Positions 27,136 to 33,961 of a stretch of DNA of 64,000 nucleotides are shown here, one piece after another. Positions within the stretch are counted from its first letter, which is position 1. Every line of letters starts with the position of its first letter. The notes below the pieces were generated by a model, which was not told where the DNA came from, did not search any database, and was given only the letters and a program-made list of their open reading frames with translations. The translations under genes and the position numbers were made by a program. Source of the DNA: Polyangiales bacterium (GTDB lineage: Bacteria; Myxococcota_A; Polyangia; Polyangiales; Ga0077539); the NCBI GenBank assembly GCA_044229975.1, contig JBGARZ010000007.1, positions 320,001 to 384,000 of the forward strand, written 5' to 3'.

Positions 27136-29472
27136 GTGACCCTCGGCCTCCCGCCAACCCCCGAAGACGAGTACCTCTGGGGCTGGGACGCCACCCCCGC
27201 CATCGTCTCCGTCTGGGCCGATCACGACGGCCGCGCCCACGTCTGGCGTCGCACGCCCACCGGCATCTCCTACGAGCCCGCGCGCTTCCGCCCGTGGGCG
27301 CTGCTCGCCTCGCTCGACGACATCGTCTCCCCGTCACTCCCGCGCGGCGTCACCTGGCGCGAGCTCCGCGGCGACGGCCCGCTGCGCTTCCTCGTCGAGG
27401 CCGATGCCTCCCGCGACCTCACCGCGGCCATCCTCCGCAACGCCTCGCGCCGCACCGGACGCACCCTCCAGCGCCTCTCCGAGCTCGATGACGGCACCGT
27501 GCTCTCGCTCCCACCCGAGGAGCAGTACCTCGTCGCCACCGGCCGAACCCACTTCCGCGACCTCGCCTTCGACGACCTCCACCGCCTCGCCTTCGACCTC
27601 GAAACCACCGGCCTCGACCCCGCCCACCATCGCGTCTTCCTCGTCGCCATCCGCGACAACCGCGGCCTCGCCACGACCCTCGAAGTCGCCGACGCCTCCG
27701 ACGCCGCCGAAGCACAGCTCCTCCGCGACCTCGTCGCGCTCATCAAGACCCGCGACCCCGACGTCATCGAGAACCACAACCTCCACGGCTTCGACCTCCC
27801 CTTCATCGCGACCCGCGCTCGCGCGCTCGGCGTCCCGCTCACCTTCGGTCGCTTGCCCAGCGTTCGACTCGCGCCTCGCCCCGGACCGCGCGGCAAGACC
27901 CGCTACACCATCCCGGGCAGGGAGCTCATCGACACGCTCGACGCCGTTCGCCGCCACGACTTCTCGGCGCGCGACCTCCCTGGTCACGGCCTGAAAGCCG
28001 TCGCGAAGCACTTCGGGCTCGCGGGTCCTGATCGCGAGTACGTTGCTGGATCGAAGGTCTACGCGACCTGGCTCAGCGACCCCGCGCGGGTGCGCCGCTA
28101 CGCCCTCGACGACACCGCCGAGGCCATGGGACTCGCGCGCGTTCTCGGTGGTGCGGCCTTCGCGTTGGCCCGCATGGCGCCGCGTCGCTACGAGCGCCTC
28201 GCAGACGCCGGCCCCGCCACGGGTGTGCTCGACCCGCTCCTGGTGAGGGCGTACGTGCGCGCCGACACCGCGCTCCCCGCGCGCTCCGAGGGCGACGGAA
28301 CCGTCCACACCGGCGCCGCCCTCTACCTCTTCGCAGCCGGCGTGGCGAAGCGCATCGTGAAGGCCGACGTCGCGAGCCTGTACCCCTCGCTCATGCGGCA
28401 GTACCGCATCGGACCGCGCGGCGACGGCCTCGGCGCGCTGCTCGCACTGGTCGATCGCCTCGTCGAGCAACGACTCGCGGCGAAGGCGCGCGGTCGCGCG
28501 GCGCCGCACGGCTCCAACGAGCGGTACACCGACGAGGCGCTGTCGGCGGCGATGAAGATCCTCGTCAACTCGGCCTACGGCTATCTCGGCGCGGTCGGGC
28601 TCACGCGCTTCGCGGACGTGCACGCGGCCAACGAGGTCACGCGGCGCGGTCGCGAGGTGCTCGATCGCGTTTGCGCGGCGCTGGCCGAGCGCGGCGTGAC
28701 GCTGCTGGAGGGGGACACCGACGGCGTGTACTTCGCCGTTCCCGAGGAGTGGAGCGAGGAGGACGAGCGGCGCGTGGTGCGCGAGGTCGGAGAACTGCTA
28801 CCGCCGCTGGTGCGGTTGGAGTTCGACGGGCGCTACGCCGCGATGCTCTCGCACGAGCCCAAGAACTACGCGCTGCTCGGCTACGACGGAAAGCTGCTGC
28901 TGCGCGGGGTGGCCTTCCGATCGAGCCGCTCGGAGGCGTATGGGGAGCGCTTCCTGCGCGAGGCGGCGGGCTGTCTGCTGGCGGGCGACGTGAAGGGCGC
29001 GCGGGCCGCGTACCGGGCGACGGTGACGGCGGTGCGGGCGCGGGCGCTGCCGACGTCGGACGTGGCGATGCGGGTGCGGCTGACGAAGGAGACGGCAGCG
29101 TACGTGGCGACGCGCCATCGCCGAAAGGAGCTGCCCTACGAGGCGGTGCTGACCAACGGGCGCACGACGTGGGCGGTGGGCGAGCGGGTGCGGATCTACC
29201 GGGCGACGGGTGGTCGCGCGGGGCTGCTGACGGAGGCGGAGGAGGGCGGCGACGAGGGCGCGGTCGACGCGAGGGACTACGACGTGGAGCACTACGTGCG
29301 GGTGCTGCGCGACGGGTACGCGACGCGGCTGGCGCGGGCGTTTTCGCCGGAGGGGTTCAGGGCGCTCTTCGACGACCCCGACCAGCCGTCGCTGTTTGCG
29401 CGGCTCGACGAGCTGGTGCAGCCGCGGCTGACGGTGTGTCGCGCGCCGCCGCGGTTGCGCGAGGGGGAGTAG
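27136..29472 (+). CDS. polB: Family B DNA polymerase with 3'-5' exonuclease domain
   Basis: ExoI FDLETTG, ExoII NHNLHGFDLPF, ExoIII YALDD; polymerase motifs DVASLYPS, KILVNSAYG, GDTDG, KNY. Confidence 0.9.
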   Translation: MTLGLPPTPEDEYLWGWDATPAIVSVWADHDGRAHVWRRTPTGISYEPARFRPWALLASLDDIVSPSLPRGVTWRELRGDGPLRFLVEADASRDLTAAILRNASRRTGRTLQRLSELDDGTVLSLPPEEQYLVATGRTHFRDLAFDDLHRLAFDLETTGLDPAHHRVFLVAIRDNRGLATTLEVADASDAAEAQLLRDLVALIKTRDPDVIENHNLHGFDLPFIATRARALGVPLTFGRLPSVRLAPRPGPRGKTRYTIPGRELIDTLDAVRRHDFSARDLPGHGLKAVAKHFGLAGPDREYVAGSKVYATWLSDPARVRRYALDDTAEAMGLARVLGGAAFALARMAPRRYERLADAGPATGVLDPLLVRAYVRADTALPARSEGDGTVHTGAALYLFAAGVAKRIVKADVASLYPSLMRQYRIGPRGDGLGALLALVDRLVEQRLAAKARGRAAPHGSNERYTDEALSAAMKILVNSAYGYLGAVGLTRFADVHAANEVTRRGREVLDRVCAALAERGVTLLEGDTDGVYFAVPEEWSEEDERRVVREVGELLPPLVRLEFDGRYAAMLSHEPKNYALLGYDGKLLLRGVAFRSSRSEAYGERFLREAAGCLLAGDVKGARAAYRATVTAVRARALPTSDVAMRVRLTKETAAYVATRHRRKELPYEAVLTNGRTTWAVGERVRIYRATGGRAGLLTEAEEGGDEGAVDARDYDVEHYVRVLRDGYATRLARAFSPEGFRALFDDPDQPSLFARLDELVQPRLTVCRAPPRLREGE

Positions 29473-29486
29473 TGGAGAGCGAGCGG

Positions 29487-30215
29487 ATGCGCTTGCTGGT
29501 CGTCGCGGTCGCGCTGCTGGGATGCGCCGCGCGGCCGCCGCTCGCGGTCGTCGCGCGGGACTCCCCCGACGTCGGCGCCGTCGTTCGCATCCGCGGCACC
29601 GGCGCGTGCCTCGCGGTGCGCGTCGCTCCGGGCACGCTGCTCACCGCGGCCCACTGTGTCGTCGGCGTTCGCTCGCTCGGGGACATCCGCGTCGGCGCGC
29701 CGCCCCGCGCCGTGCGCCCGCCCCGCGTGCTCTCGTGCGCGCTGCATCCGACCAACGCGCCGCGCTTCGACCGCTGCGACGTCGACGACCACAACGCCCG
29801 CGGTCACCTCGGTGACGTGTGGGGCGACCTCGCGATCCTGCGCGTGGGGGATGATCCCGCGGGTGCTCCGGTGCTCCCGTCGTTGGAGTCGCTCGCCGAC
29901 CCGGAGTCGCTGGTGGGCCTCGACGCGTGGGTGATCTCCGACGACGCGCCTACCTGGATCGACGCGTCCGCGCCGCGCCCGGTGCGCAACCGGGTGACCT
30001 TCGCCGAGCAGGGCGAGGTGCGCACGGCGGGCGCCGATCGCGCGGACATCTCGACGCGACCCGGCGACTCGGGCGGTCCGTTGCTGATGCGCCGCGCGGG
30101 GCGCTGGGTGGTGGTGGGTGTCCTGTCGGGCGGGGCGAGCGACTACTCGCCGGACTCGCGCTTCGCACCGACCTTCGCCGTCGAGACGTCGGCGTGGCTC
30201 GCACGCTCCCGTTGA
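29487..30215 (+). CDS. Trypsin-like (S1) serine protease lipoprotein
   Basis: LTAAHC, GDLAIL, GDSGGP; lipobox LLGC. Confidence 0.88.
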   Translation: MRLLVVAVALLGCAARPPLAVVARDSPDVGAVVRIRGTGACLAVRVAPGTLLTAAHCVVGVRSLGDIRVGAPPRAVRPPRVLSCALHPTNAPRFDRCDVDDHNARGHLGDVWGDLAILRVGDDPAGAPVLPSLESLADPESLVGLDAWVISDDAPTWIDASAPRPVRNRVTFAEQGEVRTAGADRADISTRPGDSGGPLLMRRAGRWVVVGVLSGGASDYSPDSRFAPTFAVETSAWLARSR

Positions 30216-30254
30216 CCCAAGAGGGTTGTCGGAAAGAAAATTGTCGATTGGGCA

Positions 30255-30282
30255 TTGACCCGATATGGAAGTGCTGTAAGGT
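30255..30282 (+). promoter_or_regulatory. Putative sigma70 promoter for the RNA cassette
   Basis: TTGACC, 16 bp, TAAGGT, preceded by an A-rich tract (GAAAGAAAATT); GTCGAT-N5-ATTGAC imperfect palindrome overlaps the -35. Confidence 0.5.
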
Positions 30283-30299
30283 CGGCCTCGGTAACTGCC

Positions 30300-30398
30300 A
30301 TGACGACCAGGCCACACACGCAGAGGCGAAGGCGAGATGGAGAGCGCGAGCCGTCGCGCCTCGATCGCTCGGAAACCTGCGCTCCGGCCGTCTCGTAG
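30300..30398 (+). CDS. Putative 32-aa leader peptide (MTTRPHTQRRRRDGEREPSRLDRSETCAPAVS)
   Basis: ATG 30300 to TAG 30398, just downstream of the promoter; contains AGG x3 and CGA x2; no SD. Confidence 0.4.
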   Translation: MTTRPHTQRRRRDGEREPSRLDRSETCAPAVS

Positions 30399-30441
30399 CA
30401 GTACGCGACACGACGGAGCGCCACCGGCCCGAGCCGGAACC

Positions 30442-30517
30442 GCCACCGTCTTCTAACGGTAAAGGATGCTGGGCCCTCGACCCGGCGATGAGGGTTCAAA
30501 TCCCTTCGGTGGCACCA
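30442..30517 (+). tRNA. tRNA-Glu(CTC)-like, atypical (C33, G37), CCA encoded
   Basis: Acceptor GCCACCG/CGGTGGC, D arm TTCT-AACGGTAAA-GGAT, anticodon arm CTGGG-CCCTCGA-CCCGG, T arm GAGGG-TTCAAAT-CCCTT, ends ACCA. Confidence 0.75.
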
Positions 30518-30547
30518 TCGGTCTCCCTTGTCGGGAGCACCGAGCGG

Positions 30548-30621
30548 GTTCTCATAGGTCAACCGGATAGACCGCTCGTTTCCTAAACGGGTTGTTGGAG
30601 GTTCGAATCCTCCTGAGAACA
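30548..30621 (+). tRNA. tRNA-Arg(CCT), CCA not encoded
   Basis: GTTCTCA/TGAGAAC, D arm GGTC-AACCGGATA-GACC, anticodon arm CTCGT-TTCCTAA-ACGGG, T arm GGAGG-TTCGAAT-CCTCC. Confidence 0.88.
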
Positions 30622-30632
30622 CTGCCTTGTAT

Positions 30633-30705
30633 CCCCTGATGGTCCAGCGGTACGGACGCTCGCTCGTCGCGTGAGAAGCCCACGGTTCGACTCCCGGTCG
30701 GGGGG
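30633..30705 (+). tRNA. tRNA-Asp(GTC)-like, atypical (C33, G37, mismatched T stem), CCA not encoded
   Basis: CCCCTGA/TCGGGGG, D arm GTCC-AGCGGTAC-GGAC, anticodon arm CTCGC-TCGTCGC-GTGAG, T loop TTCGACT with two T-stem mismatches, G discriminator. Confidence 0.65.
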
Positions 30706-30725
30706 CTGTCGATTGAATAGTGTGG

Positions 30726-30834
30726 GGAGAGGACATTGGCGTAGCGGTGAAGCGGACTTCAAGTGTCTTGAGTGACGTCGTGCCCGGCTGCCGTGGGTTT
30801 TCAACCCGCGGTAGCCGGACGCAATGACCCCTTT
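30726..30834 (+). ncRNA. Unassigned multi-stem (three-way junction) structured RNA
   Basis: Closing stem CATTG(G)CGT/ACGCAATG; arm GCGGTG..ACT(T)CAAG-TGT-CTTGAGT..CGTCGT; 16-bp hairpin CCGGCTGCCGTGGGTT/AACCCGCGGTAGCCGG. Confidence 0.45.
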
Positions 30835-30892
30835 GAAGGAGCATGACGTCCCCCATTGACCCCGAGGCCCCATCGCGAGTGCAATCACCCGC

Positions 30893-33800
30893 ATGGACAG
30901 CCGCCCTCCCGTCGTCGCGCGAGCCCTCACCTGCCTCGCCCTCTGCCTCTCGGTCGGCGTCGGCTGTGACGGTGGCAACTCCGTCGTCGGCGGCGCCGAT
31001 GCGGGTGACAACACCGTCGACGTGAAGCCCATCGACACCGGCTCCGTCGTCGACGTCACCGACCTCGGTGCGACCGACGTCGTGGTCGATGTCCCCGGCA
31101 TGGACGCCGCCCTCGATGTCCCCTTCGACGCGCCCACCGATGTCGCTGCCGACGTCGCCGCCGACACGCCCGATGTCCCCACGCGCTGCATGGGCAACGG
31201 CGACTGCGCCGGCGACGCCACCCGCCCGGTCTGCGACACCGTCTCGGGTCGCTGCGTGGTCTGCACCGGTGCCGACCCGGGCGCCTGCTCGACCGCCGAG
31301 CACTGCGACTCGACGGCCAACGTGTGCGTTCCGGGCTGTCGCTCTGACGAGGGATGCGTCGCGGGCGACGGTGGCGTCGGTCCCGACGGCGGAACCGGTC
31401 GCTGCGACACCGAGCGCCACGTCTGCGTCGAGTGCAGCACCAACGCCCAGTGCGGCGCCGGTCGCCTCTGCGTGGGCAACGTGTGCGTCCCCGGGTGCAA
31501 CGACACCCAACCGTGCTCCGCAGGGCAGACCTGCTGCGCCGGTGCGTGCGCCGACCTCCAGACCAACCTCACCAACTGCGGCACCTGCGGAACCGTCTGC
31601 CGCACCCCCAACGGCACCCCCACCTGCCTCAATGCGATGTGCCAGGCGGGGACGTGCGGTGAGGGCTACGCCGACTGCAACCGCTCCAACGCCGACGGCT
31701 GCGAGGTCTCCCTCAACACCGACCTCACCAACTGCGGCACCTGCGGAACGGTGTGCCCCACCCCTGCCAACGCCAGCGCCTCCACCTGCGTGAGCGGCCG
31801 CTGCGGGTACACCTGCGCGCCCTCCTTCGCCGACTGCGACACCACGGCCGCCAACGGCTGCGAGGCCGACCTGCGCGTCAACGTCGCCCACTGCGGCGCG
31901 TGCGGGGTCGCCTGCCCGCCTCGCGACCACGCTCCCACGGGCGTCTGCGCGGCGGGGCGCTGCGACGTGGTGTGCGAGGCCAGCTACGGCAACTGCGACA
32001 ACAACCCCGACAACGGCTGCGAGCTCGACCTGCGCGCCGACGTCAACCACTGCGGAACCTGCGCGACCGTCTGCCCCCTCCGCGCCAACTCCACGCCGAC
32101 CTGCGCCGCGGGCGCGTGCGGGTTCACCTGCAACCCCGGCTTCGGCGACTGCGACGGCAACCCCGCCAACGGCTGCGAGGCCGCGCTCAACACCGACGCC
32201 ACCCATTGCGGCACCTGCACCACCGCGTGCGCGACCCCGGCCAACGCCCAGTCCGTGTCGTGCGTCTCGGGTCGCTGCGACTTCACCTGCCGCGCGCCCT
32301 TCGCCGACTGCGACGGCCTCGACACCAACGGCTGCGAGACCGACCCCCGCGGATCGGTCGCCCATTGCGGTGGCTGCGGCCTCGCGTGCCCGACGCGCCC
32401 CAACGCCTCGCCGACCTGCGCGGGCGGCACCTGCGGCCTGCGCTGCGACACCGGCTTCGGCGACTGCGACGGCGACGCCACCAACGGCTGCGAGACCGAC
32501 CTGCGCACCACCGTGTCGAGCTGCGGCGCCTGCGGTCGGGTGTGCAGCGTTCCGGGTGGGCTGGCGGCGTGTGTGGCCTCGACCTGCGTCGTGGCCTCGT
32601 GCGGCAGCGGCGGCTTCGGCGACTGCGACGGCATCGCCGGCACCGGCTGCGAGACCGACCTGCGCTCCTCGCCCAACCACTGCGGCGCCTGCAACAACGC
32701 GTGCCCGGTGCGGGCCAACGCGATCCCCATCTGCGCGGTGGGCACCTGCGCGAGCGCCTGCCAGCCGGGCTACGGCGAGTGCGACGGAAACCTCACCAAC
32801 GGCTGCGAGACCAGCCTCGCGTCGAGCCCCGCGCACTGCGGGAGCTGCGGCCGGAGCTGCACGGCTCCCAACGCCGTCAGCGCGTGCGCGTCGAGCACCT
32901 GCACCCTCGCCTCGTGCAACCCGGGCTTCGGCGACTGCAACAGCAGCCCCGGCGACGGCTGCGAGGTCGACCTGCGCAACACCGCCACCTCGTGCGGAAC
33001 ATGCGGCCGCACCTGCACCATCGCCAACGGCGCGGCGGGCTGCTCGTCGGGCGCGTGCACCGTGGCGGCGTGCTTCGGCGGTTACGGCGACTGCAACAAC
33101 AGCCCGACCGACGGCTGCGAGACCAACCTCTCCAACACCGTCTCGTCGTGCGGCGCATGCGGGCGCTCGTGTGCGGCAGCCAACGGCACGGCGGGGTGCT
33201 CGTCGGGCGCGTGCACGGTGGCGTCGTGCAACGCCGGCTACGCCAACTGCAACGGCAGCCCTGGCGACGGCTGCGAGGTCAACCTCACCAACGATCCCAA
33301 CAACTGCGGCGGCTGCGGGGTGCGCGGCGTCGAGGTGTGCGACGGCCGCGACAACGACTGCGACGGCGCGGTCGACGAGGGCTGCCCGACGGGCCTCGCG
33401 GGGCTCTCGACCTTCGACGCCTACGGCCCGCCGTGGGGCGGCGGCGGCGGCGACGCCTACGACATGGCCTGCCCGTCGGGGCAGGTCGTGACGGGCCTCT
33501 TCGGCCGCTCGGGGAGCTACCTCGACAACGTCGGCTTCTACTGCGGCACCCCGACGCTCGTGGAAGACCGCTCGGTGACGCCCTACACCTACCGCGTCGA
33601 CGTGAGCGGCGGCTCGACGCTCGGCCCGGTGGGTGGCGGCGGCGGCGGGTACTTCTCCTTCGCGTGCCCGGCCAACACCGTCGCGATGCGCGTGCTGGGG
33701 CGAGGGGCCGGGTACATCGATCGCTTCCAGATCGAGTGCTTCCGCTGGGACGTGAGCGGCTCACCGACGGCGGGCTTCACCATCTCGCGCAGCAGCAGCG

Positions 33801-33961
33801 TCGGCGGCGGCCTCTCCGGGGCCTACGGCGGCACCGGCGGCAGCCCCTTCGACTATTACTGCCCCTCGTATGGTGCGCTGCGCCGCGTCTTCGGCGGCGC
33901 CACGCGCTACGTCGACCGCCTCGGCACCTGGTGCACCGCGCCGTCGCTCACGGTGCGGTGA
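30893..33961 (+). CDS. Cys-rich repeat surface lipoprotein with C-terminal jacalin-like lectin domain
   Basis: Lipobox VGC; ~10 x (GFGDCDG..NGCETDL....HCGAC) repeats; EVCDGRDNDCDG motif; three GGxGG beta-prism repeats. Confidence 0.8.
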   Translation: MDSRPPVVARALTCLALCLSVGVGCDGGNSVVGGADAGDNTVDVKPIDTGSVVDVTDLGATDVVVDVPGMDAALDVPFDAPTDVAADVAADTPDVPTRCMGNGDCAGDATRPVCDTVSGRCVVCTGADPGACSTAEHCDSTANVCVPGCRSDEGCVAGDGGVGPDGGTGRCDTERHVCVECSTNAQCGAGRLCVGNVCVPGCNDTQPCSAGQTCCAGACADLQTNLTNCGTCGTVCRTPNGTPTCLNAMCQAGTCGEGYADCNRSNADGCEVSLNTDLTNCGTCGTVCPTPANASASTCVSGRCGYTCAPSFADCDTTAANGCEADLRVNVAHCGACGVACPPRDHAPTGVCAAGRCDVVCEASYGNCDNNPDNGCELDLRADVNHCGTCATVCPLRANSTPTCAAGACGFTCNPGFGDCDGNPANGCEAALNTDATHCGTCTTACATPANAQSVSCVSGRCDFTCRAPFADCDGLDTNGCETDPRGSVAHCGGCGLACPTRPNASPTCAGGTCGLRCDTGFGDCDGDATNGCETDLRTTVSSCGACGRVCSVPGGLAACVASTCVVASCGSGGFGDCDGIAGTGCETDLRSSPNHCGACNNACPVRANAIPICAVGTCASACQPGYGECDGNLTNGCETSLASSPAHCGSCGRSCTAPNAVSACASSTCTLASCNPGFGDCNSSPGDGCEVDLRNTATSCGTCGRTCTIANGAAGCSSGACTVAACFGGYGDCNNSPTDGCETNLSNTVSSCGACGRSCAAANGTAGCSSGACTVASCNAGYANCNGSPGDGCEVNLTNDPNNCGGCGVRGVEVCDGRDNDCDGAVDEGCPTGLAGLSTFDAYGPPWGGGGGDAYDMACPSGQVVTGLFGRSGSYLDNVGFYCGTPTLVEDRSVTPYTYRVDVSGGSTLGPVGGGGGGYFSFACPANTVAMRVLGRGAGYIDRFQIECFRWDVSGSPTAGFTISRSSSVGGGLSGAYGGTGGSPFDYYCPSYGALRRVFGGATRYVDRLGTWCTAPSLTVR

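Follow-up and report, generated by a model that had tools for sequence, protein, structure and literature searches.

What is a cluster of three tRNA genes, two of which lack the U33 that is nearly invariant in tRNAs (PMC5041475), doing among the protein-coding genes of a Polyangiales bacterium? The cluster lies on the forward strand of the window (the whole stretch of 64,000 nucleotides that was analysed), in a genome (G000) of 10 Mb, 39 contigs and about 71% G+C. ARAGORN calls tRNA-Glu(CTC) at 30442-30517, tRNA-Arg(CCT) at 30548-30622 and tRNA-Asp(GTC) at 30633-30706, and all three belong to the Rfam tRNA family RF00005, with scores of 48.7, 62.7 and 36 bits, respectively, above the gathering score of 29. 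An earlier note, made from the letters alone, had recognized three cloverleaves and proposed scoring with ARAGORN as a check; the calls and the scores bear it out. The anticodon loop of the Glu(CUC)-type gene (Glu*) is CCCTCGA (30474-30480), with C33 at 30475 and G37 at 30479, and that of the Asp(GUC)-type gene (Asp*) is TCGTCGC (30664-30670), with C33 at 30665 and G37 at 30669, which is the double change that had been reported. The tRNA-Arg(CCU) gene, which decodes AGG, has a canonical loop, as had also been stated.

The stems are less regular than they had been described. Acceptor stems are fully paired in all three genes, as claimed, but a U10-U25 mismatch in Glu* and a bulge and a mismatch in the T stem of Asp* had gone unlisted. 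Glu* also has A73, followed by an encoded CCA; Asp*, for which CCA is not encoded, begins with C1-G72 instead of G1-C72, the first pair of the bacterial tRNA-Asp identity set and one that is strictly conserved in bacterial tRNA-Asp (PMC9976931). By its sequence Asp* is the most doubtful member of the trio, and the Rfam scores of both Glu* and Asp* are at the low end among the tRNAs of the genome. These defects favour the reading that the block is a decaying duplicate: its leader (the upstream open reading frame described below) would be real in the parent, here only tRNA-Arg(CCU) or nothing would work, and C33 and G37 would reflect relaxed selection. Against decay, Asp* has all five of the strong determinants listed for bacterial tRNA-Asp (PMC9976931), namely G73, G34, U35, C36 and C38.

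A contig from sequencing run X4 shows no difference from 30354-30504, the Glu* loop included, at a shallow depth of 3-4. A contig of the same shallow depth from run X7 is about 94% identical to 30514-30709 (12 other letters and one gap); it lacks the extra T-stem base of Asp* and has no change listed in the Asp* loop, only 8 of the 12 differences being given by place, and this too speaks against decay. Because the first contig repeats the Glu* loop and the second lists no change in the Asp* loop, sequencing error is an unlikely source of the loop letters. In the public sequencing runs the matches were limited to small shares, no contig spans the unit, and no RNA run was confirmed to contain the sequence.

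Seven window proteins were scanned against Pfam; the genes around the block encode a DNA polymerase of family B, a protease of the trypsin type and a large protein rich in Cys. The polymerase-like gene (27136-29472, two genes upstream of the block) is polII-related and falls below curated cut-offs, and the Cys-rich gene (30893-33961) encodes a 1022-aa repeat protein that has no Pfam match and belongs to a large family within the genus. No integrase or phage gene was found among the seven flanking proteins, in agreement with the remark in the earlier note that no integrase is adjacent, and so nothing in them marks a tRNA-targeting integrative element or prophage. The G+C content of the flanks resembles that of the genome. 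A dispersed palindromic repeat, which we take to be REP-like, adjoins the unit at 30783-30818 but lies outside it; it has matches elsewhere in the genome and in relatives, and its core pattern occurs in 25 copies genome-wide. A selC-like candidate at 30740-30770 was dropped, Rfam being empty there and the selC of the genome being elsewhere. In five genomes of the same genus, no tRNA was found within the loci examined around homologs of the downstream gene, which belongs to too large a gene family for this to date the insertion.

The origin of the block can be traced within the genome. G000 possesses 44 housekeeping tRNA genes and 27 spare ones in about ten small dispersed blocks, the two labels having been assigned by eye after some of the leaders had been seen. 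Every one of the 27 spare anticodons is also present in the housekeeping set, as in L-arrays, whose model, the trn operon on plasmid delta of Anabaena/Nostoc sp. PCC 7120 (PMC8421152), likewise consists of supernumerary tRNAs that repeat housekeeping anticodons. A paralogous block (G000:C2), present also in G005 (G005:C498), consists of Glu(UUC), Glu(CUC), Arg(ACG) and Asp(GUC), and the window block has a mean column identity of 82% with these two across promoter, leader and tRNAs. The body of Glu* is homologous to the first gene of the paralog, Glu(UUC), with a replaced anticodon arm, and tRNA-Arg(CCU) is derived from the Arg(ACG) body through a change of anticodon arm; a spacer hairpin (30518-30545) occupies the place of the second tRNA-Glu gene, judging from the sequence and an alignment gap. 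Where Asp* and the paralog diverge in the acceptor, D and anticodon stems, the changes keep the pairs, which argues against decay. The Glu and Asp tRNAs, called unrelated in the earlier note, are neighbours in one duplicated block, and the paralog has U33. The parental block was found in just one of eight same-genus genomes and no ortholog of the exact window copy in 60 relatives; both results weigh against the leader switch proposed below, and the latter absence is in keeping with decay.

With the spare Ser block as query, relatives were found to have these tRNA types in long, contiguous arrays that contain an HNH gene; arrays of these types occur in 12 relatives, and the intact ones reach 39 called genes. 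The spare set of G000 also has an HNH gene, not beside the window block but inside another block (C21). An array-type tRNA-Asp with G37 is a further likeness to the L-array model, and the embedded HNH gene may be another. The tRNA genes that are contiguous in relatives are dispersed in G000, with three of them here. By comparison of these sequences, the window block is a duplicated fragment of the L-array kind and not an intact member. The option that the trio might be stress-induced tRNAs fits such an origin; in Anabaena, 23 of the 26 array tRNAs are charged on induction (PMC8421152).

Several wider searches were made for the block and its kind. A plasmid blastn search gave four short matches, confined to tRNAs. 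A pattern from the 5' end of tRNA-Glu was too unspecific in metagenomes (119 stretches listed; 2 of 80 loci tRNA-like), a one-mismatch pattern matched 401 genomes of the order about as often as its control, a Ser pattern found no tRNA at 20 non-self loci in 301 genomes of the phylum, and an Arg pattern found two loci among genome contigs and none in viral contigs. A release-factor-like protein was tried as an array marker in 351 genomes and abandoned, the matches being mostly ordinary RF1 and only one of four candidate regions holding an array; this search also led to G492, which has spare blocks elsewhere in its genome. The conclusions are drawn without the unpublished genomes G313 and G137.

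Other unusual tRNA genes were noticed. An orphan array-type Arg(GCG) gene with G33 lies between palindromic repeats (L189:886; G000:C2:10385), and several tRNA-like remnants and a degenerate tRNA-Cys missed by ARAGORN are also present (L187:1620-1720, and L182 upstream of Ser). By eye, several array tRNAs of G032 (L268/L329; G032:C469) appear to be interrupted in the T arm by a repeated insert of about 60 nt with a common sequence, which may be a mobile element or a small intron. In G005 (L278:824 and L279:778; G005:C578), two odd tRNA bodies that are nearly identical and start with U are called Ser TGA and Gly TCC, and a metagenome contig (L116) has two tRNA-like genes with shortened anticodon loops that adjoin a tRNA with a CTA (amber) anticodon.

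If the block descends from an array, how unusual are C33 and G37 among array tRNAs? In a census of 171 distinct tRNAs from 12 L-arrays of relatives (ARAGORN default cut-off, which favours intact genes), C33 was present in 25 (about 15%); each of the 12 arrays has it, and so do 13 of the 40 anticodon classes. A control change, U55 to C, was present in 1 of the 171. A further array (G138) has C33 in 2 of 37 tRNAs and the Anabaena array in 0 of 24, and in G000 C33 occurs in 3 of 27 spare vs 0 of 44 housekeeping tRNAs. G37 was found in 5 of 11 array Glu/Asp genes, and also in the Glu(UUC) gene of the paralog and the tRNA-Asp of the Anabaena array. Genes for Glu(CUC) with C33 and a near-identical anticodon arm recur in two other families (G032, and G034 twice) and on three viral contigs, although the search pattern required C33 and so shows recurrence, not frequency. 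The canonical T loop is about equally common in C33 genes (20 of 25) and U33 genes (124 of 144). Individual tRNAs without U33 are known: a yeast tRNA-Leu(GAG) with C33 functions nearly normally (PMC13492127), and C33 occurs in the eukaryotic initiator tRNA and G33 in Candida tRNA-Ser (PMC5041475). In these, too, U33 is replaced in an otherwise intact tRNA, but they are single genes, whereas C33 in arrays spans 13 anticodon classes.

The earlier note had argued that the same double change in two acidic-amino-acid tRNAs indicates selection rather than decay. Simple decay is indeed not supported for the arrays, in which C33 recurs and T loops are kept, but neither is a special acidic role, because C33 is no commoner in Glu/Asp genes (1 of 11) than in other array tRNAs (24 of 160). 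In relatives, where a search for C33 and G37 had been recommended, C33 was found in Glu(CUC) genes and in none of the five array Asp genes, the latter a point that the decay reading can claim. It is very improbable that Glu* and Asp* serve acidic amino acids in particular as decoys or as non-ribosomal donors of aminoacyl groups, another option of the earlier note: the loop deviations and the departures at G10/G73 or G1-C72 could lower ribosomal use, but C33 is not acidic-specific, no aminoacyl-transfer enzyme was found among the seven window proteins scanned against Pfam, and the codon-sensing leader described below would be sensible only for decoding tRNAs. C33 and G37 are read here as recurrent, tolerated variants of array tRNAs, mostly with G34 or C34 anticodons, that are neither acidic-specific nor random decay; Glu* and Asp* likely still decode, and Asp* may do so weakly.

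C33 and G37 may instead have been selected to evade anticodon nucleases or modification-dependent toxins, the leader switching on resistant replacements once housekeeping tRNAs have been cut. This possibility, compatible with a leader switch, is a tentative one. It draws on the confinement of C33 to spare tRNAs in G000, on the rarity of the U55-to-C control change, and on the bias of C33 to tRNAs with G34 or C34 (24 of 126 vs 1 of 45 with other anticodons; Fisher p=0.006, kin not being independent). The same hypothesis has been published for phage tRNAs with anticodon-loop deviations, which are also accessory (PMC10264068), although the relevant part of that source does not treat tRNAs for Glu or Asp. 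No U33- or A37-dependent nuclease was identified here, the Anabaena array has no C33, and the G34/C34 bias equally fits tolerance, since strong codon-anticodon pairing needs the U-turn less.

The feature that the earlier account of the locus missed, while getting the tRNAs right, is a codon-matched leader upstream. A sigma70-type promoter (TTGACC-16 nt-TAAGGT, 30255-30282), preceded by an A/T-rich tract, is predicted by eye; its -35 hexamer is invariant in both homologous blocks, and similar elements precede other spare blocks, although a consensus promoter scan listed another site (30212-30241) and not this one. The leader ORF (30300-30398, forward strand) has 32 codons, MTTRPHTQRRRRDGEREPSRLDRSETCAPAVS, of which 8 are for Arg (3 AGG), 3 for Glu and 2 for Asp. 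Codons cognate to the tRNAs of the block (Arg/Glu/Asp) number 13 of 31, vs 6.4 expected (p=0.006), an enrichment of the kind seen in attenuators, and in the alignment both homologous blocks retain an ORF that begins at this ATG. No Shine-Dalgarno sequence was seen by eye. The three AGG codons of the window leader (AGG frequency 3.6 per 1000 genome-wide) accompany tRNA-Arg(CCU), and the paralog leader, whose tRNA is Arg(ACG), has no AGG and nine CGN codons. That AGG appears together with the CCU anticodon is suggestive only, as leaders seem to favour rare codons generally, but this tracking of the new anticodon is a further point against decay, which is on balance rather unlikely.

Matched leaders are found throughout the spare set, with starts chosen by eye after some leaders had been seen. 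For seven independent blocks, the true assignment of leaders to blocks was the best of 5040 at both the amino-acid and the codon level; for all nine blocks, it was reached by 4 (amino-acid) and 2 (codon) of 362,880 assignments. In an automatic scan of the 450 nt upstream, an ORF enriched in cognate codons at p<0.01 preceded 6 of the 10 spare units and 4 of the 36 housekeeping units (Mann-Whitney p=1.7e-5). Asn, Lys and Arg make up 9 of the 15 codons in the leader of the Asn-Lys-Arg block, Ser and Cys 20 of 41 in that of the Cys-Ser4 block, Gly 7 of 30 in that of the Gly2 block, and His and Tyr 4 of 10 in that of the Tyr-His block. Three of the nine blocks show no individual enrichment (Leu, p=0.36; lone Tyr, p=0.16; Trp/Phe/Gln, p=0.29); three Leu codons of the Leu leader match the three anticodons of its block, and the candidate ORF of the Trp/Phe/Gln block runs into the tRNA. 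Between genomes, which as kin are not independent in these comparisons, the His/Tyr leader ends in HHPHRY in all four copies from three genomes, Ser/Cys leaders are present in three genomes, and leaders occupy the same position in G004 and G005.

Similar leaders are present at a greater distance. G492, of the same phylum but another class, has four blocks with matched leaders (cognate fractions 0.65, 0.55, 0.62 and 0.41), each followed by a hairpin and U-tract terminator; the true assignment is the best of 24, the lowest p attainable, with 14 regions inspected and a GTG start required for the Ala/Gly/Thr leader. No leader was found for the Pro block of G492. Intact arrays have leaders of a different composition: each of the 11 arrays examined, from six genera, is preceded by an ORF of 48-124 codons that contains all 20 amino acids and stops a short distance ahead of a hairpin whose tail is rich in T, the count being of arrays with upstream sequence (two more begin at contig ends). 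Among ATG-to-stop ORFs of 45-100 codons in G000, all 20 amino acids are present in 5 of 4272, 12 of 3266, 16 of 2714 and 141 of 5307 (0.1-2.7%), figures below the true chance, several ORFs having been inspected per region and the longest leaders exceeding this range. A Lys/Gln-rich ORF just before some arrays was rejected as a leader because it overlaps a promoter-like stretch.

Several related loci have features of their own. A region of G000 (L187:355-670; G000:C21) resembles an ancestral-type array head, with a promoter, a 50-codon leader that contains 19 amino acids and a strong terminator, followed by the HNH gene and tRNA-Thr. A second ORF between the Asn and Lys-Arg genes (L181; G000:C19 323960-324130), which ends in Lys-Arg-Lys, is by eye a possible internal leader. 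In the Tyr/His blocks (L184, L185, L275 and L285), the first tRNA-Tyr has a 5' acceptor strand that is the complement of the His-Pro-His codons of the leader, and codons and strand co-vary between G000 and G005, with moderate support from an energy test. Spare Tyr/His blocks are followed by a short release-factor-like gene (L184:700-1378, reverse strand, G000:C4; L185, G000:C34; L275, G005:C498) with PCRF and RF-1 domains and GGQ, below the prfA, prfB and prfH cut-offs. It is split after 36 codons by CTT-TAG-C (one copy) or CTT-TGA-C (two copies), a site that we take to resemble the +1 frameshift of prfB; on its sequence, TAG vs TGA at this site would sense RF1 vs RF2.

Control might be exerted at the promoter only, by a repressor, with the leader ORF incidental. 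The Anabaena trn operon is a single operon under the control of repeats in its promoter (PMC8421152); no codon-matched leader was found there, and an A/T-rich tract with TCGA-like half sites was seen by eye upstream of several spare promoters. In contrast to that operon, the array of G000 is scattered over about 10 small blocks; every block has a promoter of its own, and most have a matched leader. Promoter-only control is improbable, as it leaves unexplained both the block-specific codon match and the all-20-amino-acid leaders with terminators. The block is instead probably a duplicated piece of a broken-up L-array, and its upstream leader likely acts as a stalling switch on the spare tRNAs.

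How might such a switch operate? Two hairpins are predicted between the leader and the first tRNA. In H1 (30379-30421), an antiterminator-like stem, the final leader codons form the 5' arm; H2 (30424-30437) is the core of an alternative stem, predicted from folding and three homologs, that would capture the first 9-12 nt of tRNA-Glu*. The outer 8 pairs of H1 and 5 pairs of H2 are invariant in all three homologs, among which no covariation or compensatory change was found in either stem. In the predicted folds, H1 forms when the upstream part of the leader is covered; when the leader end is covered, the 3' arm of H1 lengthens H2 and base-pairs to the first 9-12 nt of the tRNA, at -21 to -28 kcal/mol in all three Glu blocks. 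In folds of the whole transcript, just 4 of 32 ribosome positions let the acceptor stem of the window copy recover (0.7), and the predicted switch is weaker than in the paralogs. Leaders generally pair with their own first tRNA no more strongly than with about 40 control tRNAs (the window ranks 30, 18 and 20 of 40), so the idea that this pairing is specific is unsupported overall; moderate ranks were obtained for the Tyr units alone, in folds with no ribosome on the RNA (4/39, 5/40, 7/40 and 16/39).

No intrinsic terminator (hairpin and U tract) was found in 30000-31100 of the window. Terminators are present in eight related leaders, including that of C21; in ribosome-mask folding, run without a shuffled control, a ribosome placed at the stop gave the terminator in all eight, and for seven of them there was an upstream placement that weakened it. 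In the window, the leader ORF would be translated, and the ribosome would read the Arg/Glu/Asp run as a test track. A ribosome stalled in this run would leave H1 intact, allowing the first tRNA to fold and the trio to be made. One that reached the leader stop would melt H1, and the 3' arm of H1 would then trap the first 9-12 nt of tRNA-Glu*; the transcript would be ended or spoiled through Rho-type termination or failed processing, which are proposed because a U tract is absent. The putative sensor, a codon-matched leader, is well supported by the comparisons of leaders and blocks; what follows as output, be it termination by Rho, a misfolded RNA or failed processing, is a guess.

Leader-peptide attenuators such as trpL, hisL and the multivalent thrL and ilvL control amino-acid operons. 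As in pheL-pheA (PMC3082878), a short leader with cognate codons right after the promoter is followed by alternative hairpins that overlap its end, and the terminator predicted in the tRNA-array leaders of relatives when the ribosome is at the stop follows pheL-type logic (PMC3082878). The product here differs, being tRNA and not biosynthetic enzymes, and the switch would respond when tRNA molecules or decoding run short, not when an amino acid does; the window unit also lacks a U-tract terminator and a Shine-Dalgarno sequence, and the intact arrays use an all-20 leader. In the open-access literature, no publication was found on a leader peptide or attenuation at tRNA genes or arrays, and 'leader' and 'attenuat' are absent from the main text of PMC8421152. 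L-arrays and attenuation of amino-acid operons are known; an attenuator-like leader on tRNA genes, not found in print, would be new.

By themselves, C33 and G37 are of modest interest, as a recurrent trait of array tRNAs. A more speculative and doubtful extension would make the whole family a system of tRNA-supply feedback, in which an all-20 leader gates the intact array, broken blocks evolve leaders of their own codons that follow even the anticodon (AGG with Arg(CCU) here), the block in the window uses a terminator-free switch that traps its tRNA, and C33/G37 tRNAs escape a destroyer of housekeeping tRNAs. The matter bears on how bacteria sense that a given tRNA runs short and on the reasons for which some of them maintain a second, silent set; the one array that has been studied, that of Anabaena, is promoter-controlled. 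If the stalling-switch reading is true, a codon-matched leader would give tRNA genes a direct feedback sensor specific to the isoacceptor, and sequence alone would predict which stress each spare block answers.
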